Below, piece by piece: positions 8,225 through 18,502 of a stretch of 64,000 bases of DNA. Location of the stretch: the NCBI GenBank assembly GCA_964461255.1, contig CAYWTR010000004.1:46395-110394 (forward strand), written 5' to 3'. The notes beneath the pieces were generated by a model that was given only the letters and a program-made list of their open reading frames with translations, had not been told where the DNA came from and did no database searches. The stretch is from an uncultured Fibrobacteraceae bacterium (GTDB lineage: Bacteria; Krumholzibacteriota; Krumholzibacteriia; LZORAL124-64-63). Each line of letters starts with the position of its first letter. The stretch's first letter is position 1. A program made the position numbers and the translations under genes.

Positions 8225-8239
8225 GTTCACCGGGTGAAC
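8225..8239. promoter_or_regulatory. Perfect 15-bp palindrome GTTCACC-G-GGTGAAC upstream of HNH paralogue 1 (candidate operator)
   Basis: Arms GTTCACC/GGTGAAC are exact reverse complements. A related perfect palindrome, TTTTACCCGGGTAAAA, sits at the equivalent position upstream of HNH paralogue 2. Confidence 0.45.
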
Positions 8240-8269
8240 GGGGACGCGATCATTTTTTCATTTTTCCCC

Positions 8270-8298
8270 TTGCGGCCTGATCGAATATTCGCTATATT
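8270..8298 (+). promoter_or_regulatory. Sigma70-type promoter (-35 TTGCGG, 17-bp spacer, -10 TATATT) of HNH paralogue 1
   Basis: Strong -10 and acceptable -35 at the canonical 17-bp spacing, inside an AT-rich island. The 26-nt block containing the -10 (ttcgctatattttcgtct(t)tctccg) is 24/26 identical to the block upstream of paralogue 2. Confidence 0.5.
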
Positions 8299-8350
8299 TT
8301 CGTCTTCTCCGGATCAACACCACCCTTCCTCCCGGTTGGGATCGATCGCG

Positions 8351-9802
8351 ATGGGTTCGATGGCGCAGGTCCAGTGGGGCGGGCAGGCGGCGGAGCGTGC
8401 CGTCGCCGGCGGATCGGAGGGAGCGGTTCGCGGGGGCGTTCCGCCGTTGTCGGCGCTCGATGCTCGGCAGCTGCATGCCCGCATCCTCGCCTCGCTGCGC
8501 GAGCAGCAGCGGGCGGAGCGGCGCTCGGTCATCTGGTTCGCCGAGCTGATGGCGCGGCGTCTGTACCGCGAATTCGGGCACTCCAGCATCCAGCAATACG
8601 CTGCCATCGCCCTGGGCTTCTCGCGCGCGAAGACCTCGTACTTCGTCCACCTGGCCGATGCCTTCGCGCGCCTGCCCGGACTGCGGGCCGAAGTCGCCGC
8701 CGGTCGCCTGGGCTGGACCAAGGCGCGGGCCGTGGCGCGGGTCGCCACTCCCGCCACCGAAGCGCGCTGGCTGGAGATAGCGCGGCGGGTTTCGCGCAAT
8801 GAACTCGAGCGCCGCATCGCCGCGGCGCGGGCCAGAGCGAGGGCGTCCAAGGAAGGGGCGGCGGCGGTCGCGCGGGCCGAGCCGGCGGCGCAGCCGGCGC
8901 CGGCTGTTGCGCCAGCGCAGGCCGCGCAGCCAATGCCAGCCGAGCAGCCCGCGCAGCCAATGCCGGCCTTGCTGCCGCTGGCCGGCATCGCGACGGCGGG
9001 CGGCCCGGGAGCCGAACCGGAAACGCCCATCACGCTGACGCACCGTTGGACGCCCGTGCAGTATGCGCGGTACGAGGCGCTTCTGGAGAGGGTGCGCAAG
9101 GTGGCGGCCGTGCCGCGCGGCGCCACGCGCGAGGAGATCCTGCTGGCGGCGCTCGACGCGTTGGGCAGTGTGCCGTTCGTGACGATGTCGACCGGTGTCG
9201 ACTCGACCGCGGGCGCCGACCCGGGGGCAAGCGATGCCTCTGCCACCGGCACCGCCGCCACCGCCCCGGCCATTGCCCTGGCCGCCGCCCCGGCCGCTGC
9301 CCCTGCCGGCCCCCCGGCCGCCGCCCCCGCCGCCGCGGGCTCGCGCTATCAGATCATCATCTACAAGTGCCGGGAGTGCGACCGGGGCGAGGTGCGCACT
9401 TCGCTGGGGGCGCGGACCCTGTCGCCCGCGCAGATGGCGGCGGTGGAGTGCGACGCGGCGGTGCTCGGGGACGACGGCCGCAACCGGGCTACCGTGCCGC
9501 CGGCGATGCGGCGGGCCGTGCTGGCACGCGACGGGCATCGCTGCCGGGCTCCGGGGTGCGGGCGGACTCGCTTCCTCGAGGTCCACCATCGCCTGCCGCG
9601 CGAGCGGGGCGGGGACAACCGACCGGACAACCTGATAACGCTCTGCTCGGCCTGCCATCGGATCTGGCATGAACTGGCGGCGACGCCAAACCTCGCGCGG
9701 TTGTTCGCGCGAGCGCCGGGTGCGCCGCCGGCGCAGGAGACCGAGCGGTCGCCGGGCCCGGCGACGGCCCTCGACCTTGCGTCAGGTCGGCCGGGGCCGT
9801 AA
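8351..9802 (+). CDS. HNH endonuclease domain protein (DUF222-like N-region plus C-terminal HNH nuclease), paralogue 1
   Basis: C-terminal CRAPGCGRTRFLEVHHRLPRERGGDNRPDNLITLCSACHRIWHE is an HNH motif. The N-region shares a conserved core with the 54772-56247 protein. The start is chosen at the first ATG downstream of the conserved promoter; the ORF is open from 8234. Confidence 0.7.
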   Translation: MGSMAQVQWGGQAAERAVAGGSEGAVRGGVPPLSALDARQLHARILASLREQQRAERRSVIWFAELMARRLYREFGHSSIQQYAAIALGFSRAKTSYFVHLADAFARLPGLRAEVAAGRLGWTKARAVARVATPATEARWLEIARRVSRNELERRIAAARARARASKEGAAAVARAEPAAQPAPAVAPAQAAQPMPAEQPAQPMPALLPLAGIATAGGPGAEPETPITLTHRWTPVQYARYEALLERVRKVAAVPRGATREEILLAALDALGSVPFVTMSTGVDSTAGADPGASDASATGTAATAPAIALAAAPAAAPAGPPAAAPAAAGSRYQIIIYKCRECDRGEVRTSLGARTLSPAQMAAVECDAAVLGDDGRNRATVPPAMRRAVLARDGHRCRAPGCGRTRFLEVHHRLPRERGGDNRPDNLITLCSACHRIWHELAATPNLARLFARAPGAPPAQETERSPGPATALDLASGRPGP

Positions 9803-9830: not shown

Positions 9831-10745
9831 ATGGTCTACCGCATCGCCGCCGTCTCCTATCTCAATGCCTGGCCGTTGGTCGCGGGACTGAGCGGCGGGC
9901 ATGTGCAGCCGCCGGCCGGACGCAAGATCGAACTGCAGCACGAAGTGCCGAGCGTGCTCGCCGAGCTGCTGTTCGCCGGCGAGGCCGACGTCGCCCTGGT
10001 GCCGATCGTCGAGCACTTCCGCGGCATGGGAGCGGGTCTGGTGCCGGGCATCGGCATCGCCTGCCAGGGGCCGGTCGAAAGCGTCAAGCTGTTCACGCGG
10101 GTAACGCCGGCGGCGATCGGGCGCGTGCAGGTCGACAAGGGATCGCGCACCTCGGTGGCGCTTCTGCGGATCCTGCTGGCGGAGATGTTCGACGTGCGGC
10201 CCGATTTCTACGTGGCCGAGCCCAAGGTCGACGAGCTGCTGCGCAACGAGGAGGCGGCGCTGGTCATCGGCGACCGCTGCTTCGAGGCCGAGGCGCGCTT
10301 CCGGCGCGAGGGGGTGCTGGCGCCCGTGGCCGCGGCGGCGCCTTCGACCGGCGCGGTCGTGGCGGCCCATGATCTGGGCGAACTCTGGCATCGCCTGACG
10401 GGTCTGCCCTTCGTTTTCGCGGCCTGGATGCTGGGGCGCGGCTTCGTCCAGGATGCCGGCGCGGAGCAGACCACGGCGCTGGCCGATCTGCTCACCGCCG
10501 CGCGCGACTGGGGGCTGGCGCACCTGGACGAGCTGGCGGAGCGGGCCGCTGCCGAGGGCAGGCCCGGGCCGTCCGGGGATGGCACGGCCGCAAGCATCCG
10601 GCGCTACTTCGCCGAGAACATCCGCTACACGCTTGGCGAGCGGGAACTGGCCGGGGCGCAGCGCTTCCACGAGCTGTGCGTCCGGCACTGCATCTGCCCC
10701 GCCGGCCGGTCGCTGGCGCTGGCGGCCGCGGCCGAGCAGGCCTAA
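9831..10745 (+). CDS. mqnA: Chorismate dehydratase MqnA (futalosine pathway of menaquinone biosynthesis)
   Basis: N-terminal YRIAAVSYLNAWPLV is the hallmark of the MqnA/MqnD periplasmic-binding-like fold, and the SYLN variant is typical of MqnA. 305 aa, adjacent to an Mqn radical SAM enzyme. RBS ggagag upstream. Confidence 0.75.
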   Translation: MVYRIAAVSYLNAWPLVAGLSGGHVQPPAGRKIELQHEVPSVLAELLFAGEADVALVPIVEHFRGMGAGLVPGIGIACQGPVESVKLFTRVTPAAIGRVQVDKGSRTSVALLRILLAEMFDVRPDFYVAEPKVDELLRNEEAALVIGDRCFEAEARFRREGVLAPVAAAAPSTGAVVAAHDLGELWHRLTGLPFVFAAWMLGRGFVQDAGAEQTTALADLLTAARDWGLAHLDELAERAAAEGRPGPSGDGTAASIRRYFAENIRYTLGERELAGAQRFHELCVRHCICPAGRSLALAAAAEQA

Positions 10746-10824: not shown

Positions 10825-12090
10825 GTGATCGGCCGCGAGCCCGACCTCGCGGGCGCAGGCGACGGATCGGCCGCGCCGGCGACGCCCGCGGCAGCCGCCG
10901 TGCCGGCGGCAGCCGCCGCGCCCGCGGCAGCCGCGACGCCGGCCGAGGCCGCCATCGTCGATCGGGTGCCGCACTCCTCGTCGGCGGAGGCGCTGGCCAT
11001 ACTGGCCGAGGCCGAGCAGGAGGGGAGGCGGCTGACCGGCGGCGAGCTGCTGCTGCTGTTCGAGGAAGCGGCGCTGCCCGATCTGGGACGGGCCGCGCAC
11101 GCCCTGCGCCTGCGGCGCAGCGATCCGCGGCTGGTGACCTATGTCATCGACCGCAACGTCACCTACACCAACCTGTGCTACACGGATTGCCTGTTCTGCG
11201 CCTTCAACCGGCATGACGGCGCGGACGACGCCTACGTGCTCGGCCTCGACGAGATCCTGGCCAAGGTTCGATCGGTGGTAGCGGCGGGGGGCAACCAGAT
11301 CCTGCTGCAGGGCGGTCACCACCCGCGGCTGAAGCTGCCCGACTACGAGGCCATGCTGGCCGCGATCAAGAGCGCGCACCCCGACATCTGGATCCACGGC
11401 TTCTCGCCGTCGGAGATCAAGCACATCGCCAAGCTGTCCCGGGTATCCACGCGCGAGACCCTCAAGCGCTTGCAGGCGGCGGGGCTGGCCTCGATCCCCG
11501 GCGGCGGCGCGGAGATCCTGAGCGACCGCGTGCGCGGGCTGCTCGCGCCGCGCAAGACGACCGCCTTCGAGTGGACCTCGATCATGGAGGAAGCGCACGC
11601 GCTCGGCCTGCGCAGCACGGCGACCATGATGTTCGCGCACGTCGAGACCTTCGTCGAGCGGGTCGAGCACCTGCTGCGACTGCGCGAGAGCCAGGACCGC
11701 ACCGGCGGCTACAACGCGTTCATCTGCTGGACCTATCAACCGCACCACACGCCGCTCAACGACCATCCCGAGCTGGTGGCCCAGGTGCGGGCTCGCGGCT
11801 ATCAGGGAGCGCTCGACTACCTGCGCACCCTGGCGATCGCGCGCATCGCCCTGGATAACTTCCCCAACGTGCAGGCGTCGTGGGTGACGCAGGGCAAGGC
11901 CATCGGCCAGATGACGCTGCACTTCGGCGCCAACGACCTGGGCAGCACGATGATGGAGGAAAGCGTCGTCTCGGCGGCCGGCACCGTCCACTGCCTCAGC
12001 CAGGACGACCTCAACGAGATGGCGCGCGGCGCGGGCTTCGTGCCCGCCGTGCGCGACAACGGCTACCGCGTGCTGCGCGTGCTCGACTGA
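10825..12090 (+). CDS. Radical SAM enzyme of the MqnE/MqnC family (aminofutalosine synthase or cyclic dehypoxanthinyl-futalosine synthase)
   Basis: CYTDCLFCAF CxxxCxxC cluster. The GGNQILLQGGHHP and FICWTYQPHHTPL family signatures and its position adjacent to mqnA support the assignment. Has an Ala-rich N-terminal extension and a GTG start. Confidence 0.75.
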   Translation: MIGREPDLAGAGDGSAAPATPAAAAVPAAAAAPAAAATPAEAAIVDRVPHSSSAEALAILAEAEQEGRRLTGGELLLLFEEAALPDLGRAAHALRLRRSDPRLVTYVIDRNVTYTNLCYTDCLFCAFNRHDGADDAYVLGLDEILAKVRSVVAAGGNQILLQGGHHPRLKLPDYEAMLAAIKSAHPDIWIHGFSPSEIKHIAKLSRVSTRETLKRLQAAGLASIPGGGAEILSDRVRGLLAPRKTTAFEWTSIMEEAHALGLRSTATMMFAHVETFVERVEHLLRLRESQDRTGGYNAFICWTYQPHHTPLNDHPELVAQVRARGYQGALDYLRTLAIARIALDNFPNVQASWVTQGKAIGQMTLHFGANDLGSTMMEESVVSAAGTVHCLSQDDLNEMARGAGFVPAVRDNGYRVLRVLD

Positions 12091-12263: not shown

Positions 12264-12836
12264 ATGAAGAGGCAATTGTCCAGGGCTGTGCGCCGTTGCG
12301 CCTGCGCGGCGGGGTTGGTGCTGCTCGTCGCCGCCGCGGCGTCCGCCGACCAGGTCGTCATCACGCTCGACGCCAATCCCGGCACGGCCTGCAACACGCC
12401 GTGGCACGAAGCGTCGTGCGAGCTGGTCTTCCTGCCCACCACCACCCAGGACTGCATCGTCGCCGGCCAGCTCGGCTACTGCTACCCCTCGTGGCTGTCG
12501 ATCGGCCTGGGCACGGGGATCGGCGTGACGCCCGCCCGCATGCGCGTCGATTTCAGCGCCATCCAGGGGGTGCGGTCGGTCCAGCTGCAGATCTACGAGG
12601 CGCACGAGCTGGGCTGCACGCGCGCCTTCCTCTACAGCGGCAGCACGCTGGTCGATTCGGCCGGCAGCCAGTACACCGGCAGCAACCACTGGATCGAGCT
12701 GGACGCGGGCTCCCATGACGTGGACCACCTGTTCGTGTCGGGGCACGAGGGCTACTGCTGGGAGATCAGGCTGATCGGCGACACGCTGGTCGACACCGCG
12801 GGCAGCACCTGGGGAGCGCTCAAGGCGCTGTACTAG
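12264..12836 (+). CDS. Secreted Cys-rich hypothetical protein
   Basis: Signal peptide (AAGLVLLVAAAASADQ). Strong RBS (gggggaaggagatcgccATG). AT-rich promoter island upstream containing TATAAT. Balanced, non-repetitive composition. Confidence 0.5.
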   Translation: MKRQLSRAVRRCACAAGLVLLVAAAASADQVVITLDANPGTACNTPWHEASCELVFLPTTTQDCIVAGQLGYCYPSWLSIGLGTGIGVTPARMRVDFSAIQGVRSVQLQIYEAHELGCTRAFLYSGSTLVDSAGSQYTGSNHWIELDAGSHDVDHLFVSGHEGYCWEIRLIGDTLVDTAGSTWGALKALY

Positions 12837-12842
12837 CGGCCG

Positions 12843-14105
12843 CTATTCCAGCTTCAGCCACTCGGTGCCGTAGATCTCGCGGGGGAAGATCTTCGGCGCC
12901 AGGCCGTAGAGGAACTGGCGCAGCTTCAGCGCCAGGTGATTGGCGGCGTGCGCGCCGCAGACGGTGCGCAGGTAGCCCTCCAGGGTGTAGATCTGGACCT
13001 CCACCGGGAAGCGGTACGGCGGCCGGCCGGCGGCGGTGTTGGGGTAGAGGATGCTGACATCTCCCTTGAAGACGCGGTAGCCGCGGCCGGAGTGCACGTT
13101 GAGCTGCGCGCGGTCGCGCGGGTCGGCGATGGTGTCGACGACGTTGCGCCAGCCGACCGGGCGGCCGACGATCTCGTCGAGCAGGCGCAGCAGGTCGTCC
13201 AGGGCGTCGTCGTCGTGGACGATGAACATGGCGCCGATGACGTCGGTGATCTCGCTGGGGTTGTTGATGCCCTTGCGGATCATCTTCGAGACGATCGAGC
13301 CGCTGCTCTGGCGGCGCATGTCGCCCCAGCGCTTGCGTTCGAGCACGCGGTGGCGGCCCTCGACGATCTCGTACGAGACGGCGTCCACCGTGCGCTTGAA
13401 GCGGCAGTTGTAGTACAGGATGTCGAGCGCGATCTTGCCGCGCTCCAGGAAGATCGAGCGGAAGGTCCAGCGCTGCTGCCCCTCGGTCGGGCGCAGGCTG
13501 TAGTTGATGGTGTCGCCGTCGGCGTCGATGCTGTAGCCGATCTCGACCTCGTGCACCTGCCGCGCGTGGCGCCACAGCCCCTTCTGCAGCCGCTCCTCGA
13601 AGTACGCCTTGTGCCGGGGTCCGTCCTGGATGTGGCGCGATTGGTCGATCTCCAGGAACAGGCTGGCCAGGTAGAGCTTGCGTTGCGCCTCGTAGCGCTC
13701 GCGGCGGTCGGTGGCGCCGAAGACCACGTCCAGCAGCGCGCGCAGGTCCTCGCAGGCGGTCACGCCGGGCAGCGGCTGGACGGCGTGCGCGGCGTGCGCG
13801 GGCAGCAGGTTGACCAGCTCGCGCAGGTAGGTGTCGGTCTCGCGCAGGTACTCGGCCATGCGCGCGGCGTCGCGCGCTCCCGCCGGCGGCGTGCCGGCGG
13901 GGTGCAGAAGGCTGGCCAGCGCCTGGCGGTAGGCGTCGTCGTCCTGGCGGATCCGCTCGTAGAAAAGCCGGAAGAAACGCCGCTGGCGCGACGGGCGTTC
14001 GGCCAGCAGCGGATCGAGCAGCGGGTGGGCGGCGTAGTCGACCTGCCAGATGTGATCGCCGGCCGGCTCGCGCAGATGATCGGCCGCCACCCACTGCTCG
14101 AACAT
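12843..14105 (-). CDS. RelA/SpoT-family nucleotidyltransferase ((p)ppGpp-synthetase-like) domain protein with ~270-aa uncharacterised N-terminal region
   Basis: The C-terminal half aligns by eye to the RSH synthetase core: SIVSKMIRKG...ITDVIGAMFIV matches SIYRKM...DLIAIRCV, and PVEVQIYTLEGY...CGAHAANH matches PIEIQIRTxxMH...GVAAHWxYK. There is no HD-hydrolase HD/ED motif. The start lies 25 nt downstream of the PLP enzyme gene. Confidence 0.6.
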   Translation of the reverse strand: MFEQWVAADHLREPAGDHIWQVDYAAHPLLDPLLAERPSRQRRFFRLFYERIRQDDDAYRQALASLLHPAGTPPAGARDAARMAEYLRETDTYLRELVNLLPAHAAHAVQPLPGVTACEDLRALLDVVFGATDRRERYEAQRKLYLASLFLEIDQSRHIQDGPRHKAYFEERLQKGLWRHARQVHEVEIGYSIDADGDTINYSLRPTEGQQRWTFRSIFLERGKIALDILYYNCRFKRTVDAVSYEIVEGRHRVLERKRWGDMRRQSSGSIVSKMIRKGINNPSEITDVIGAMFIVHDDDALDDLLRLLDEIVGRPVGWRNVVDTIADPRDRAQLNVHSGRGYRVFKGDVSILYPNTAAGRPPYRFPVEVQIYTLEGYLRTVCGAHAANHLALKLRQFLYGLAPKIFPREIYGTEWLKLE

Positions 14106-14130
14106 GCCCGCCTCCGGGCGCCGGCGGCCG

Positions 14131-15318
14131 TCAGACCTGCGCCAGCGCCTGCTCCAGGTCGGCCTGCAAGTCGGCCACGTCCTCGCAGCCGACCGCGATG
14201 CGCACCAGGTCGTCGGAGATGCCGATCGCCAGGCGCTCCGCGGGCGCGATGCCGGCGTGCGTCATCGACGCCGGGTGCTCGATGAGGGTCTCGATGCCGC
14301 CCAGGCTGACGGCCAGCGTCGCCAGCTTGACGCTGTTGATCAGCTTCTTGCCCGCGGCCAGCCCCCCCTTGACGCCGAAGGAACAGACGGCGCCGCCGCC
14401 CGCCATCTGCCGGCGCATCAGGTCGTGCTGCGGGTGGCTGGGCAGGCCGGGGTAGCGCACCCACGCCACCTTGGGGTGGCTCTCCAGCCAGGCCGCCAGG
14501 ATCTCGGTGTTGCGCTGCGCCCGCTCCAGGCGCAGGCCCAGCGTCTTGACGCCGCGCAGCACCAGCCAGGCCTGATGCGGGTCCATGGTGCCGCCCACGT
14601 TCTGGTGGACCTTGCGCAGCCGGGCCAGGTGCTCCTCGCGCTTGGCCACGACGATGCCGGCGACCACGTCGGTGTGCCCGTTGATGAACTTGGTCATGCT
14701 GTGCAGCACGATGTCCGCGCCCAGCGCCAGCGGCTGCTGCAGCAGCGGCGTGGCGAAGGTGTTGTCGACCGCCAGCAGCGCGCCGCCGCGGTGCGCGATG
14801 TCGGCGCAGGCCGCCAGGTCGGTCAGCTTGAGCGTGGGGTTGGCCGGCGACTCGACGTAGACCAGCCGCGTCTCGGGCCGCAAGGCCGCCTTCACCTGGT
14901 CCAGGTCGGACGAATCGACGAAGGTCGCGGTGATGCCGAAGCGCGCATACTCCTGCTCCAGGATCAGGCGCGACGGGCCGTACAGCGCCTCGGTGGCGAC
15001 GATGTGCGTCCCCTGCTCCAGCAGCGCCAGATAGACCGTGTTGACGGCCGCCATGCCGGTGGCCGCGCCGAGCGCGCCGCAGCCCCCTTCGAGCACGCTG
15101 ATGCACTCCTCCAGCGCCGCGGTCGTCGGGTTGCCCAGCCGCGTGTACTTGTAGCCGGGATCGCGCCCGCTGAAGCGGGCCGCCCCCTCGTCGGCGTCGC
15201 GGAAGGCGAAAGTGGAGGTCTGGTAGATCGGGGTGCTGACGGCGCCGGTGCGCGGGTCGGTGTGCTGGCCCGCGTGGATGATCCGGCTCTGGGGGCGCAG
15301 GCGCGCTACGTCGGCCAT
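14131..15318 (-). CDS. Cys/Met-metabolism PLP-dependent enzyme (methionine gamma-lyase / cystathionine gamma-synthase family)
   Basis: Family signatures: PIYQTSTF, the SMTKFINGHTDVV lysine-PLP motif, and the GGIETLIEHPASMTH C-terminal region. Start chosen at the ATG with an aaagga RBS. Confidence 0.8.
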   Translation of the reverse strand: MADVARLRPQSRIIHAGQHTDPRTGAVSTPIYQTSTFAFRDADEGAARFSGRDPGYKYTRLGNPTTAALEECISVLEGGCGALGAATGMAAVNTVYLALLEQGTHIVATEALYGPSRLILEQEYARFGITATFVDSSDLDQVKAALRPETRLVYVESPANPTLKLTDLAACADIAHRGGALLAVDNTFATPLLQQPLALGADIVLHSMTKFINGHTDVVAGIVVAKREEHLARLRKVHQNVGGTMDPHQAWLVLRGVKTLGLRLERAQRNTEILAAWLESHPKVAWVRYPGLPSHPQHDLMRRQMAGGGAVCSFGVKGGLAAGKKLINSVKLATLAVSLGGIETLIEHPASMTHAGIAPAERLAIGISDDLVRIAVGCEDVADLQADLEQALAQV

Positions 15319-15412
15319 GACATGTCCTTTCAGGGGCGATGCGGCTTGAGGGGCGATGATCGCCTCCCTATAATAGACCGCCGCTGACGGTGCGCCAAAT
15401 CCGGAGGTTCCC

Positions 15413-18400
15413 ATGGCTAAACTATGCATTCGCGCCGTGCTGGCCGTGCTGGCTGCGCTCGCCGCGCCGGCCGCGCCGGCCGCGCCCGCCGCCGCCCCCC
15501 TGGGCGATTGGGCCTACCTGCCCGCCGCCGATATCGGCGCGGCCGCGTTCAAGCGGGCGCATCCGACCTGGGACGGGCGCGGCGTGGTTATCGCCATCCT
15601 CGACACCGGGGTCGACGCCTTCGCGCCGGGGCTCGAGCGCACCACGACGGGGCAGACCAAGCTGCTCGAGGCGCTGGACCTGACGCCGCAGGGGGACTGG
15701 GAGACCGTCGAGGCGGAGATCGACTCGACCGAGGCTCCCGCCACGCCCGCGGCGCCGCTGTACCGGCACCCCGACGGTCATCGGCTGCGCGGGGCCGAAC
15801 GGCTGGCGGTGCCGCCGAGGCTGCGCCCGGTCTACATCACCCGCATCTGCGAGGCGGCGTTCATCAACAGCAACGGCCTGCACGATCTGAACGACGACGG
15901 CGACACCGACGACACCTTCGGCGTGCTGGTCTATCAGGCCGAGCGCGCCGAGGTCGAGGCGGCGCTGGGGGGCGGGCGCGGCTACGAGCTGCTGGCCGGG
16001 CTGTCGGAGCAGGCGCGGCGCACGGTGGCGCGCGAGCGCGAGAGCGCCCGCGTCTGGCTCGTGGCCGTCGACCGCGACGGCGACGGCCGGCTGGACGACG
16101 AGCGGCCGCTGCGCGATTACCGCGTCGACCACGATCTGTTCCGCCTGACCGCGCCCGACGCGCCCGAGGCCCGCACCCTGATGGCCTGGAGCGTCAACGT
16201 TGTCGAGCAGCCCGACCGTCTGGGCCGCCCGCGGGCGCCGAAGCTGTCGCTGCACTTCGACGACGGCGCGCACGGTTCGCACTGCGCCGGCATCGCCGCC
16301 GGCCACCGCGTCGGCGGGCAGGAGGGGCTGGACGGCGTGGCGCCCGGGGCGTGGCTCATCTCCCTGAAGCTTGGCGACAACACGCTGTCGGGCGGCGCCA
16401 CGCGCACCGAGTCGATGAAGCAGGCCGCCGAGCGCGCCGCCGCCTTCGCCGAGGATTACGGCGTGCCGGTGGTCGTGAACATGAGCTACGGCGTCGCCTC
16501 GGTGCAGGAGGGCGACGACGCCATGGGGCGGTTCCTGGACGAGCTGCTGGCGAAGAACCCCCGGCTGTTCTTCTGCACCTCAGCCGGCAACGAGGGGCCC
16601 GGCGTCTCGACCGTGGGGCTGCCGGCCACGGCGTCCAGCGTCATCGCCTCGGGCGCCTACCTTTCGCCGGCGGTCGGGGCCGACCTGTACAACGCCCGCC
16701 TGAGCGGGCCGACCCTGTTCGCCTTCTCCAGCCGCGGCGGCGACGCGCCCAAGCCCGACGTCGTCGCGCCCGGCGCCGCCCTGTCGACGGTGCCGGGATG
16801 GAACGACGGCACCGCGCGCTTCAACGGCACCTCGATGGCGTCGCCCACCACCGCCGGCGGCGTCGCCTGCCTGCTCAGCGCGGCGCAGCAGGAAGGTCTG
16901 CAGGTCCATTGGGGCATGGTCAAACGCGCCCTGATCGCCGGCGGCCGCGAGCTGCCGGGGCTGCTGCGCTGCGAGCAGGGTGGCGGGCTGGTCGATCTGG
17001 AGCGCAGCTGGGAGCTGCTGCGCCAGCTCGCCCGCAGCCGCTCCGCGCGGCAGGTGCTCGACTGGCGCGTCGAGACCGCCGCGCCGCATCAGGACGACGG
17101 CCTGGCCGGCGCCGCCTACTGGCGCACGCCGGGCGGCGTGCCGCTGGCGCCCGAGGTCGTCACCTTCAGGGTGACGCCGGTCTTCCACCCCGATCTGACC
17201 CCGGACGAGCGCGACGGGTTCTTCCGCTCCTTCACGCTGAGGGCCGAGGCGGACTGGCTGGCGCCGCTGGCGCGCCAGCGCTACGTGCGCGGCAAGGCCC
17301 CCATGGAGATCGACGTGCAGTACCGCGGCGCCGCCCTGGCGCGGCCCGGGGTGCACTCGGCGCGCGTGATCGCCGCGCTCGACGGCGGCGACCTGTCCGG
17401 CGCGGCCGCCCAGGAGTTCGCGCTCTGGAACACGATCGTCGTCGCGGATCCCTTCGGCCCCGAGGTCGGCCACAGCCGCGTCTACGAGGGGCGGGCCCTC
17501 GCGCCCTCCACCGTGCGGCGCCACCTGGTGGCGGCGCCGGCCGGCGCGACCGCGATGCGCGTCCGGCTGGAGGTCAGCGACCGCATCGGCGCCGGCGCCG
17601 GCGCCCGCGTCACCTCGGAGATCGTGGATCCCGACGGCTTCGTGCGCGGCGGCTTCCCCGGCTACGCCAGCGTCAAGGGATCGCCCGTGATCGACCAGGT
17701 CGTGCTGCCGCCCGATCTCAAGCCCGGCATCTGGGAGATCTGCGCCATCAGCCCCATCGGCGCCATGGATCCCTCGCCCTACCGGCTGGCGGTCTCGTTC
17801 GACGGCTACGAGGCGTCGCCCGCCGTGATCACAACGCTGCCCCGCGGCGCTCCGGGCAAGCCGGCCGAGACCGAACTGACCGTCACCCGCGCCTTCGACG
17901 GCGTCTTCAAGGGTGCCATCGAGGCCCGCCTGGCCGGCTTCAGGCGCGAGCGGCCCATCACCATCGAGGAAGAGGACGTCTGGACGCACAGCTTCACGCT
18001 CGATCGCGCCACCCCGTCCGTCGAGTTCCGCCTGCGCATGGACAAGGCCACCGCCAACCTGCTCACCGACTGCGCCGTCAACGTCGTCGACGACACGGGC
18101 AAGCGCGTGCGGTCCGGCGCCTTCGACGGCGTCGAGGCCGAGATGGCCTTCGCGCTGCCGGCCGGCCTCGACAAGGCGGGGTACAAGCTGGAGGTGGTCG
18201 CGGGCTTCGCCCTGCGGCAGGACATGGAGACGTGGGGCTTCACGCTCGACGAACGGTACCTGCTGGCCGCGCCGGTCGCCGGCGCGGTCGAGCGGGCGGC
18301 CGGCAAGGGCGGACCCGCCGCCACGCACCTCCACGCCGGCGTGCCGGTCAGGCTGAAGGTGTCGTTCGCCGATGTCTGGCCCGTGGCGCCCGACGGCCTG

Positions 18401-18502
18401 GCGCCGTTCGGCCATGTCCGTTTCCGCGATCAGAACACCTCCGACAAGGCGCCCGGCGATCGCGAAGGACGGGTGGTGCTGGAGGTGCCGATCAGGTTGT
18501 AG
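15413..18502 (+). CDS. Secreted S8 (subtilisin-like) serine peptidase, large multi-domain
   Basis: Signal peptide. Catalytic triad motifs: Asp (VVIAILDTGVD), His (HGSHCAGIAAG) and Ser (GTSMASPTTAGG). 1029 aa with C-terminal beta-rich extension. Confidence 0.8.
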   Translation: MAKLCIRAVLAVLAALAAPAAPAAPAAAPLGDWAYLPAADIGAAAFKRAHPTWDGRGVVIAILDTGVDAFAPGLERTTTGQTKLLEALDLTPQGDWETVEAEIDSTEAPATPAAPLYRHPDGHRLRGAERLAVPPRLRPVYITRICEAAFINSNGLHDLNDDGDTDDTFGVLVYQAERAEVEAALGGGRGYELLAGLSEQARRTVARERESARVWLVAVDRDGDGRLDDERPLRDYRVDHDLFRLTAPDAPEARTLMAWSVNVVEQPDRLGRPRAPKLSLHFDDGAHGSHCAGIAAGHRVGGQEGLDGVAPGAWLISLKLGDNTLSGGATRTESMKQAAERAAAFAEDYGVPVVVNMSYGVASVQEGDDAMGRFLDELLAKNPRLFFCTSAGNEGPGVSTVGLPATASSVIASGAYLSPAVGADLYNARLSGPTLFAFSSRGGDAPKPDVVAPGAALSTVPGWNDGTARFNGTSMASPTTAGGVACLLSAAQQEGLQVHWGMVKRALIAGGRELPGLLRCEQGGGLVDLERSWELLRQLARSRSARQVLDWRVETAAPHQDDGLAGAAYWRTPGGVPLAPEVVTFRVTPVFHPDLTPDERDGFFRSFTLRAEADWLAPLARQRYVRGKAPMEIDVQYRGAALARPGVHSARVIAALDGGDLSGAAAQEFALWNTIVVADPFGPEVGHSRVYEGRALAPSTVRRHLVAAPAGATAMRVRLEVSDRIGAGAGARVTSEIVDPDGFVRGGFPGYASVKGSPVIDQVVLPPDLKPGIWEICAISPIGAMDPSPYRLAVSFDGYEASPAVITTLPRGAPGKPAETELTVTRAFDGVFKGAIEARLAGFRRERPITIEEEDVWTHSFTLDRATPSVEFRLRMDKATANLLTDCAVNVVDDTGKRVRSGAFDGVEAEMAFALPAGLDKAGYKLEVVAGFALRQDMETWGFTLDERYLLAAPVAGAVERAAGKGGPAATHLHAGVPVRLKVSFADVWPVAPDGLAPFGHVRFRDQNTSDKAPGDREGRVVLEVPIRL

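Follow-up and report, generated by a model that had tools for sequence, protein, structure and literature searches.

A divergent RelA/SpoT synthetase-type protein with an uncharacterized N-terminal module, encoded next to a Cys/Met-family PLP enzyme in Krumholzibacteriota

What might be made by a protein that carries the synthetase motifs of the RelA/SpoT homologues (RSHs) in its C-terminal half, and why is it encoded directly behind an enzyme of the Cys/Met-metabolism family? This question is raised by a 64,000-nucleotide window (the whole stretch of DNA analyzed here; GC content, ~72%) from an uncultured Fibrobacteraceae bacterium placed in the Krumholzibacteriota (GenBank assembly GCA_964461255.1, contig CAYWTR010000004.1, positions 46,395 to 110,394), in which a first-pass annotation had singled out a gene for a 420-amino-acid (aa) RSH-like protein that follows a gene for a pyridoxal phosphate (PLP)-dependent enzyme. 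RSH enzymes were long viewed as makers of (p)ppGpp, but the fold has since been shown to make (pp)pApp and to pyrophosphorylate tRNA as well, and small alarmone synthetases (SASs) are already known to fall into diverse subfamilies. The fold of the protein, the retention of its motifs, the operon structure, the phyletic pattern and the domain fusions found in its relatives could be established directly. On the basis of these, our preferred reading, to which we assign a probability of roughly 0.45, is that the protein would be an Mg2+-dependent, RSH-type pyrophosphokinase that makes an alarmone-like nucleotide in a housekeeping role, is controlled or targeted by its N-terminal module and is coexpressed with the PLP enzyme.

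Both open reading frames (ORFs) were present on the minus strand, 25 nucleotides (nt) apart, as previously claimed: the RSH-like gene (420 aa) spans positions 12843..14105, stop codon included, and the upstream PLP-enzyme gene (395 aa), in the same orientation, spans 14131..15318. Since 402 homologues were found and an identical copy of the protein is encoded on 12 contigs, the 420-aa reading frame is real and not an artifact of the high GC content; the best 120 homologues listed are all full length, with 50 to 72% identity, and are labeled "hypothetical." Its start codon is backed by a GGAGG Shine-Dalgarno sequence ~6 nt ahead of the ATG and by the conservation of M1 and W5. The junction between the two genes consists of the TGA stop codon, the 25-nt intergenic spacer (14106..14130, minus strand; CGGCCGCCGGCGCCCGGAGGCGGGC) and the ATG, and no terminator-like site was found between the genes. 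The frame of the PLP enzyme is also open as a 432-aa ORF (14131-15429, minus strand); gene callers on identical public contigs choose the 395-aa form, and this start at 15318 fits an AAAGGA ribosome-binding site and a promoter-like site upstream of it (TTGGCG-17-TATTAT; 15370..15398, read on the minus strand from 15398 to 15370). The latter, a consensus match only, is likely the promoter of the operon. Riboswitch and other RNA searches near the operon of the window returned nothing above chance.

The C-terminal ~175 residues adopt a divergent RelA/SpoT synthetase-type fold. An AlphaFold2 model was built from an alignment of 37 family members, on which the counts out of 37 below are based (predicted local distance difference test score, 77; predicted template-modeling score, 0.72), and fell into four parts: a helical part (residues ~40 to 176), a four-stranded beta part (181 to 236), a low-confidence linker (238 to 268) and an alpha/beta core (270 to 412). 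In a Foldseek search against the Protein Data Bank (PDB), the top 36 matches were all RSH synthetases (6fgj, 6ex0, 5ded, 5xnx, 8acu and 7qpr among them), with Staphylococcus aureus RelP/SAS2, Bacillus subtilis RelQ/SAS1 and RelP, the N-terminal domains of Rel, and SpoT leading the list, which then continued with DNA polymerase beta and terminal deoxynucleotidyltransferase; the best E value was modest (8e-4), at a probability of ~1.0 and a template-modeling score of 0.4 relative to the target. By sequence, the signal lies below the customary line: PF04607 (RelA_SpoT) matched residues 264 to 376 with 18.9 bits (E = 0.0019), short of its gathering threshold of 27, and matched 21/37 members (best E value, 3.5e-5), none of which was shown above the threshold. 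An hhalign comparison of the family with a RelQ alignment gave an E value of 6.8e-5 at a probability of 63%, with all four synthetase motifs in register; the RelQ reference sequence was verified against PDB 5DED. A stepping stone was provided by a sister group of 460- to 500-aa proteins with the same helical N-terminal domain and RSH-like core, homologous to the 420-aa family over 383 columns (hhalign, 99.6%; E = 2e-24). Because this group keeps the canonical DxxGxR motif and itself aligns with the phosphate-helix and Asp-strand motifs of RelQ (E = 1.8e-4), it bridges the family to RelQ and strengthens the case for RSH homology. The Pfam and structure searches that the first-pass annotation had named as a test thus agree on an RSH synthetase-type fold that is subthreshold by sequence, although the core (residues 241 to 420; 12843..13385, minus strand) begins near residue 245 and not, as then estimated, after ~270 aa; the part ahead of it does indeed match no family. 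A tblastn search with RelQ against the window and all homologous loci detected neither a canonical RSH nor the 420-aa family. When the PDB was searched by sequence, first for the protein alone and then for the profile of its family, the hits were IMPDH (E = 0.37) and NFAT (E = 0.06), both of which we judged to be chance matches; the NFAT similarity concerns the beta module.

How much of an RSH active site is left? The motif spacings of RelQ (R46, K48, S52, K56, R59; D72, G75, R77; E139, Q141; Y116) were identical to the published ones, which allowed residue roles to be read across. In RelP, R78 and R112 clamp the donor adenine between them, K80, S84, K88 and R91 hold the triphosphate, D107 and E174 bind Mg2+, and the G-loop tyrosine (Y151, equal to RelQ Y116) contacts the acceptor base (PMC5794853). 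The residues of FaRel2 are R64, K66, S70, K74 and R77; D90, G93 and R95; E145 and Q147; and Y128, and its donor-adenine contacts include the counterparts of Q371 and G291 of the 420-aa protein (PMC11782079). By hhalign, the triphosphate-binding helix of our protein, SIVSKMIRK (13272..13298; this and the following motifs are on the minus strand), places S270, K274, R277 and K278 at RelQ S52, K56, R59 and K60 (roles from PMC5794853 and PMC11782079), and the catalytic Asp strand, DVIGAMFIV (13218..13244), places D288 at Mg2+ ligand D72, G291 at G75 and M293 at the adenine-stacking R77. The G-loop equivalent, SGRGYRVFKGD (13059..13091), has Y343 for the acceptor-stacking Y116 and K347 for H120, while the second catalytic strand, VEVQIYT (12984..13004), has E369 for Mg2+ ligand E139, Q371 for Q141 and Y373 for R143. 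Those of these motifs that had been quoted before, along with HAANH (12936-12950), translate exactly from the DNA. Ahead of the phosphate-binding helix, the hhalign alignment with RelQ opens a gap that corresponds to a family-specific insertion (residues 256 to 269; ERKRWGDMRRQSSG; 13299..13340, minus strand), which amounts to 13 residues relative to RelQ, contains the invariant residues E256, R259, W260 and G269 and falls in the low-confidence segment of the model (238 to 268).

Across the family, S270, K274, R277, D288, G291, E369 and Q371 are invariant (37/37), and the G-loop position aligned to RelQ Y116 is always aromatic (Y in 23 and F in 14 of the 37). Three canonical residues have changed. 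Position 293 is a methionine in 35/37 members, which bears out the earlier observation that the arginine of the DxxxxR motif is replaced by Met; position 373, equivalent to R143 (the Arg of E-I-Q-I-R-T in RelQ), is Y (23), F (8) or H (6); and the counterpart of H120, K347, is a lysine in all 37. The equivalent of R46 is variable by hhalign (R15, S12, Q7, T2, H1), or would be R264 (R28/K5) in an ungapped register, so that the arginine pair that holds the donor adenine (RelP R78/R112; FaRel2 R64/R95) is not kept in the family. Because the metal- and phosphate-binding residues are invariant while the equivalents of R77, R143, H120, R46 and K48 have changed, the machinery for pyrophosphoryl transfer is intact and the donor-base pocket has been rebuilt. 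The same pattern is the starting point of the main rival to our preferred reading, a somewhat doubtful one in our estimate, which holds that the fold and a pyrophosphoryl or nucleotidyl transfer are retained for a nonclassical substrate linked to the neighboring pathway: the acceptor might be a sulfur metabolite that contains adenosine, such as S-adenosylmethionine (SAM), S-adenosylhomocysteine or methylthioadenosine, or another small molecule, or the donor might not be ATP, and what is made would be a metabolite or messenger that is new, instead of (p)ppGpp or (p)ppApp. The remodeled pocket (R77 to M in 35/37, R143 to Y/F/H, and the insertion with its invariant R259 and W260) and the exchange of H120 in the acceptor loop for an invariant K347 speak for it; the invariance of the triphosphate helix and of Q371 and G291, the adenine contacts of FaRel2, instead favors ATP, and the acceptor-stacking aromatic residue has been retained as in nucleotide-acting RSHs.

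The core is preceded by 240 residues that are just as well conserved (mean column identity, 60%). They comprise an all-helical domain (residues 1 to 180; 13566..14105, minus strand), modeled with local scores of ~85 to 95 over residues 30 to 150 and with R40, Y59, Y93, R122, E139, R142, K143, G162, H165 and W178 invariant in the alignment, and a four-stranded beta module between that domain and the RSH core (residues 181 to 240; 13386..13565, minus strand), with W213, F215, D228, Y231, R235 and K237 invariant. Residues 1 to 240 had no Pfam or NCBIfam match, and a separate model of this region (local score, 78) had no significant Foldseek match in the PDB (best E value, 0.045; probability, 0.21; template-modeling score, 0.15). 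An HD-like metal site was considered and ruled out, as H158 and D161 are not conserved and no HD pair is present; together with the lack of an HD match in Pfam and of a PDB counterpart of the model, this agrees with the claim that an HD hydrolase domain is missing. The module would, we infer, be a regulatory or substrate-presenting domain. Such a large, conserved and noncatalytic module would also suit a pseudoenzyme that binds a nucleotide or alarmone as a sensor and thereby adjusts the activity of a partner, be it the PLP enzyme or some other protein, and the subthreshold Pfam score and the loss of the adenine-stacking arginines and of the K48 equivalent would fit that idea too. We nevertheless consider it improbable, since the Mg2+ ligands, Q371 and the S270/K274/R277 triad have stayed invariant across ~50% sequence divergence, as is typical of an active enzyme.

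The family is small and its distribution narrow. After clustering at 50%, 241 family representatives with an E value of <1e-3 were found among 1.8 billion proteins, and 130 stretches from the one-genome-per-species GTDB contigs encode a relative. Of these, 80 were kept for the locus analyses, all from metagenome-assembled genomes (MAGs), and the homologous loci were read by tblastn with the proteins of the window and from tables of called genes. Many of the kept loci belong to Krumholzibacteriota (some of them tagged "uncultured Fibrobacteraceae") and many are unclassified, with relatives from Candidatus Eisenbacteria present at ~41% identity. The divergence of the RSH-like gene tracks that of its neighbors (Spearman rho, 0.58 to 0.72), consistent with a gene that is passed on vertically and diverges at an ordinary housekeeping rate. 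The family is confined to MAGs of Krumholzibacteriota and Eisenbacteria, two related candidate phyla, and appears to be vertically inherited. In two Microflora Danica MAG contigs (L004, 6807-9254; L082, 7234-9266), the tblastn matches to the PLP-enzyme and RSH-like genes were broken, most likely through frameshift or assembly errors and not because the genes are pseudogenes. The literature searched, including that on Krumholzibacteriota and the stringent response, yielded no paper describing the 420-aa family and no characterization of it.

The helical module is not private to this family. In an exhaustive profile search followed by hhalign comparisons, it also turned up on the N-terminal side of the RSH-like core in members of the sister group and in 700- to 900-aa proteins; the N-terminal domain is therefore part of an older two-domain module. 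Calling it novel, as was done before, is correct insofar as it is uncharacterized, with matches in neither Pfam nor the PDB, yet the domain is shared with a wider, unnamed superfamily and hence not unique. Members of the sister group (e.g., P0177, P0181 and P0184) score up to 25.9 bits with PF04607 and, unlike the 420-aa family, have DxxGxR, VEVQxQD and a large extra segment that separates the G-loop from the E-x-Q strand. More distant relatives of ~735 aa (P0212, P0233, P0256 and P0264; e.g., locus L095, 6001-8220) have a NUDIX domain added at the C terminus, and P0256 shows a weak phosphoribosyltransferase (PRTase) match besides. In the manner of a Rosetta stone, these fusions hint at a superfamily whose members act on nucleotides and couple a synthesis step to a pyrophosphohydrolase; no description of an RSH-NUDIX-PRTase architecture was found in the literature searched. 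At the counterpart of R77, the wider superfamily has R, K, T, E, M or L, which suggests that specificity has diversified and which also counts in favor of a nonclassical substrate. In the loci of the sister and fusion groups that were examined, the neighborhoods were likewise of a housekeeping type and showed no link with a PLP enzyme. In one locus (L094, 4778-7446), sister protein P0177 is encoded divergently from a DRG-type GTPase (MMR_HSR1_Xtn plus TGS), near genes for Cas4-like PDDEXK and Toprim proteins, an archaeal-looking context that suggests that the superfamily extends beyond bacteria.

Why, then, the PLP enzyme? The upstream protein matches PF01053 with 495 bits (E = 1e-148) and keeps the PLP-lysine motif SMTKFINGH, and its earlier assignment to the methionine gamma-lyase family stands in this broad sense. 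The name methionine gamma-lyase is itself insecure, though: this family is the nearest one (best NCBIfam match, TIGR01328), but with 463.2 bits against an equivalog cutoff of 549.7, and the protein lies below every NCBIfam equivalog cutoff. Around residues 112 to 117, the enzyme reads L-Y-G-P-S-R in Krumholzibacteriota and L-Y-G-G-T-H in the partner from the Eisenbacteria-like loci. True methionine gamma-lyases carry Y-G-C-T at the YGPSR site, and the substrate may therefore not be methionine. In short, the partner is a Cys/Met-family PLP enzyme of the methionine gamma-lyase type, not a proven methionine gamma-lyase. In almost all Krumholzibacteriota loci that extend far enough upstream (L057 is the exception), its gene directly precedes the RSH-like gene on the same strand, and the two are separated, from stop codon to start codon, by a median of 30 nt (−4 to 116 nt in 66 loci). 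Such short or overlapping gaps point to a tight operon, sometimes with translational coupling, and the conservation of the pairing across Krumholzibacteriota, which the first-pass annotation had put forward as a check, was thereby confirmed.

A second arrangement was seen outside the phylum, in one Eisenbacteria-like clade, where metK and a PLP-enzyme gene are followed, after a gap of 215 to 336 nt, by the RSH-like gene. The PLP enzyme of this clade belongs to another subtype (YGGTH in place of YGPSR; 50% identity), and the gaps (L076, 7675-7983; L077, 7346-7683; L078, 7689-7983; L083, 7773-7989; L088, 5752-6001) contain a GC hairpin with a T-run, a conserved TATAAT box (GGGTATAAT) and a conserved leader of ~110 nt. 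Neither the Eisenbacteria-like loci nor the leader had an Rfam match, RNA searches of them gave nothing above chance, and the leader structure proposed by alifold had no covariation support among its 4 sequences. The link with Cys/Met metabolism is hence well supported in Krumholzibacteriota, suggested in this second clade and not universal. To the extent that it holds, the tight operon, and the metK-PLP pair upstream in the second clade, also favor the idea of a SAM-related or otherwise nonclassical substrate, against which it must be said that the linkage is missing in several lineages.

The same bicistron bears on another alternative, namely, that the protein is a toxSAS-like toxin, acting by pyrophosphorylation of the CCA end of tRNA or by synthesis of (pp)pApp and restrained either in cis by the N-terminal domain, as in the fused toxin-antitoxin CapRel, or by the protein encoded upstream. 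The combination of an RSH synthetase fold with a missing hydrolase domain would suit such a toxin, the extra domain could be autoinhibitory, and conserved, sometimes overlapping bicistrons have been used to flag toxSASs (PMC7229694). What characterizes toxSASs, however, is a cognate antitoxin gene within a conserved bi- or tricistronic locus, together with a patchy occurrence that is often tied to phages (PMC7229694). In the present loci, the one partner that is conserved is no small antitoxin but the 395-aa PLP enzyme, 67 to 79% conserved and with an intact catalytic lysine; in many loci, neither flank has space for a small ORF, the RSH-like gene being flanked by the PLP-enzyme and MqnC genes at distances of ~30 to 60 nt; and inheritance is vertical and phylum-wide, with a divergence that follows the housekeeping neighbors. 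A scan of viral contigs revealed none that encodes a relative, the PADLOC and PHROG libraries gave no match, and each of the three domains has an acidic to neutral net charge, which would not be expected of a tRNA binder. The toxSAS-like option entertained in the first-pass annotation was therefore judged unlikely, and the protein is probably a housekeeping signaling enzyme rather than a toxin.

For the preferred reading of an RSH-type pyrophosphokinase, the following course of events can be proposed. A nucleoside triphosphate donor, probably ATP, would be held on the conserved S-K-R helix; D288 and E369 would coordinate Mg2+; and the beta,gamma-pyrophosphate would be moved to the ribose 3′-OH of an acceptor, a purine nucleotide that stacks against the Y/F343 loop, yielding an alarmone-like nucleotide. 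Given the remodeled pocket, with its Met, the aromatic residue in place of the EVQIRT arginine and the R259/W260 insertion, donor or product may differ from those of classical (p)ppGpp synthesis. Residues 1 to 240 would regulate the reaction or present the substrate, and in Krumholzibacteriota the gene would be cotranscribed, and sometimes translationally coupled, with that of the Cys/Met PLP enzyme, a predicted arrangement that suggests a link between what the protein makes and the metabolism of methionine or sulfur amino acids. The reaction, its substrates, what the N-terminal domain does and the physiological coupling are inferred in this way, and several observations weigh against the scheme. 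The PF04607 score stays below the gathering score and the hhalign probability to RelQ is 63%. M293 replaces one of the adenine-stacking arginines, and the R46 and K48 equivalents are unconserved and lie in the low-confidence segment 238 to 268, so that binding of ATP in the canonical mode is not assured. As for the coupling, genes for an S8 peptidase, a GT4 protein and a histidine kinase on the PLP side are also syntenic in Krumholzibacteriota; with the whole neighborhood kept in this way, the adjacency of the PLP-enzyme gene may in part be inherited gene order. In the Eisenbacteria-like clade, the hairpin with T-run and the TATAAT box indicate that the RSH-like gene is probably under the control of its own promoter, located after a terminator, and other divergent lineages have no PLP neighbor at all, their neighbors including genes for STAS, ROK, NTP-transferase and amidohydrolase proteins. 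A bolder proposal, which we regard as unlikely, is that the family and its superfamily (including the NUDIX/PRTase fusions and the TIGR04552-like proteins) make a pyrophosphorylated nucleotide or metabolite other than (p)ppGpp and (p)ppApp, that in Krumholzibacteriota this would be a new second messenger or a modified cofactor linked with the metabolism of methionine and SAM, and that the Met and aromatic substitutions of the donor pocket would mark a new specificity class among RSH enzymes.

A few features near the operon are described here for completeness. Convergent with the RSH-like gene is a 190-aa ORF (12264-12836, plus strand) with a signal-peptide-like N terminus and the C-terminal sequence ...TWGALKALY; it had no Pfam, NCBIfam, PADLOC or PHROG match and is strain specific, being found only in contigs of the identical strain (L001 to L003) and absent from the other Krumholzibacteriota loci. 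Farther along, likewise downstream of and convergent with the RSH-like gene, at a distance that varies among related genomes, are genes of the futalosine pathway of menaquinone synthesis, encoding an MqnD-like protein (9831-10745, plus strand; PF02621) and MqnC (10825-12090, plus strand; TIGR03699, above cutoff). Another gene (8234-9802, plus strand) encodes an HNH-domain protein with a long, low-complexity, Ala/Pro-rich middle part and a called product of 483 aa. On the other side, a divergent control region of ~95 nt (15319-15412) separates the PLP-enzyme gene from that of a secreted, 1,029-aa S8 peptidase (15413-18502, plus strand) and contains promoter-like sites on both strands (15346-15374, plus; 15398-15370, minus). 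The block formed by the S8 peptidase, PLP-enzyme and RSH-like genes is syntenic throughout the phylum.

The family extends the RSH fold in several directions at once: it misses the Pfam threshold, is joined to a module without structural precedent and has lost the arginines at the ATP base while keeping the metal and phosphoryl-transfer residues. It is, moreover, fixed across Krumholzibacteriota, a candidate phylum for which MAGs are the main source of knowledge, and its gene shares an operon with that of a sulfur amino-acid enzyme. Provided that it is active, the protein would be a tractable entry point to stringent-type signaling in Krumholzibacteriota and Eisenbacteria and to a larger, uncharacterized superfamily. 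Should its product be new, a messenger or metabolite would be added to those known; should it simply be (p)ppGpp, the SAS-like enzymes would gain a new subfamily whose regulatory domain is unusual.

Compared with known systems, the 420-aa protein falls outside PF04607, the SASs, the long RSHs, the toxSASs and the TIGR04552/TIGR04562 families, in line with the earlier remark that its architecture resembles neither long RSHs nor standard SASs. Like RSHs of the long type (Rel, RelA and SpoT), it has a helical N-terminal domain of ~150 to 180 aa ahead of the synthetase (SYNTH) core; unlike them, it has no HD, TGS or ACT match in Pfam, ends right after the SYNTH core and carries a beta module between the helical domain and that core, and the model of its N-terminal domain has no match to the HD fold. 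With the toxSASs (FaRel2, CapRel and PhRel2) it shares a SYNTH-only RSH fold with accessory regions and the D, G, E and Q positions that in FaRel2 touch the donor nucleotide or Mg2+; it differs from them in having no antitoxin gene, no mobile, phage or defense context, vertical inheritance, acidic domains and Met in place of FaRel2 R95. TIGR04562 and TIGR04552, families from Myxococcales and Bdellovibrio that are themselves uncharacterized (the literature searched had no characterization of TIGR04552), are weakly similar: they recurred as matches over the RSH-like half in 23/37 and 14/37 members, respectively (best E value, 1.6e-4), with scores of ~14 to 35 bits against cutoffs of 125 (TIGR04552) and 140 (TIGR04562), the 420-aa protein itself scoring 13.6 bits with TIGR04562. 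The best structural matches remain RelQ/SAS1 and RelP/SAS2 (PDB 5DED, 5DEC, 6FGJ and 6EWZ). The relationship to RelQ is invisible to BLAST and subthreshold with PF04607, and the protein, rather than being a single-domain SAS of ~200 to 250 aa, has an extra N-terminal module of 240 aa, Met for RelQ R77/RelP R112, an aromatic residue for the EIQIRT arginine, Lys for H120 and the 13-aa insertion. What it has in common with these enzymes are the S-x3-K-x2-R-K helix, the D-x2-G strand, the G-Y loop and the E-x-Q strand and, with them, the Mg2+ ligands and the phosphate contacts.

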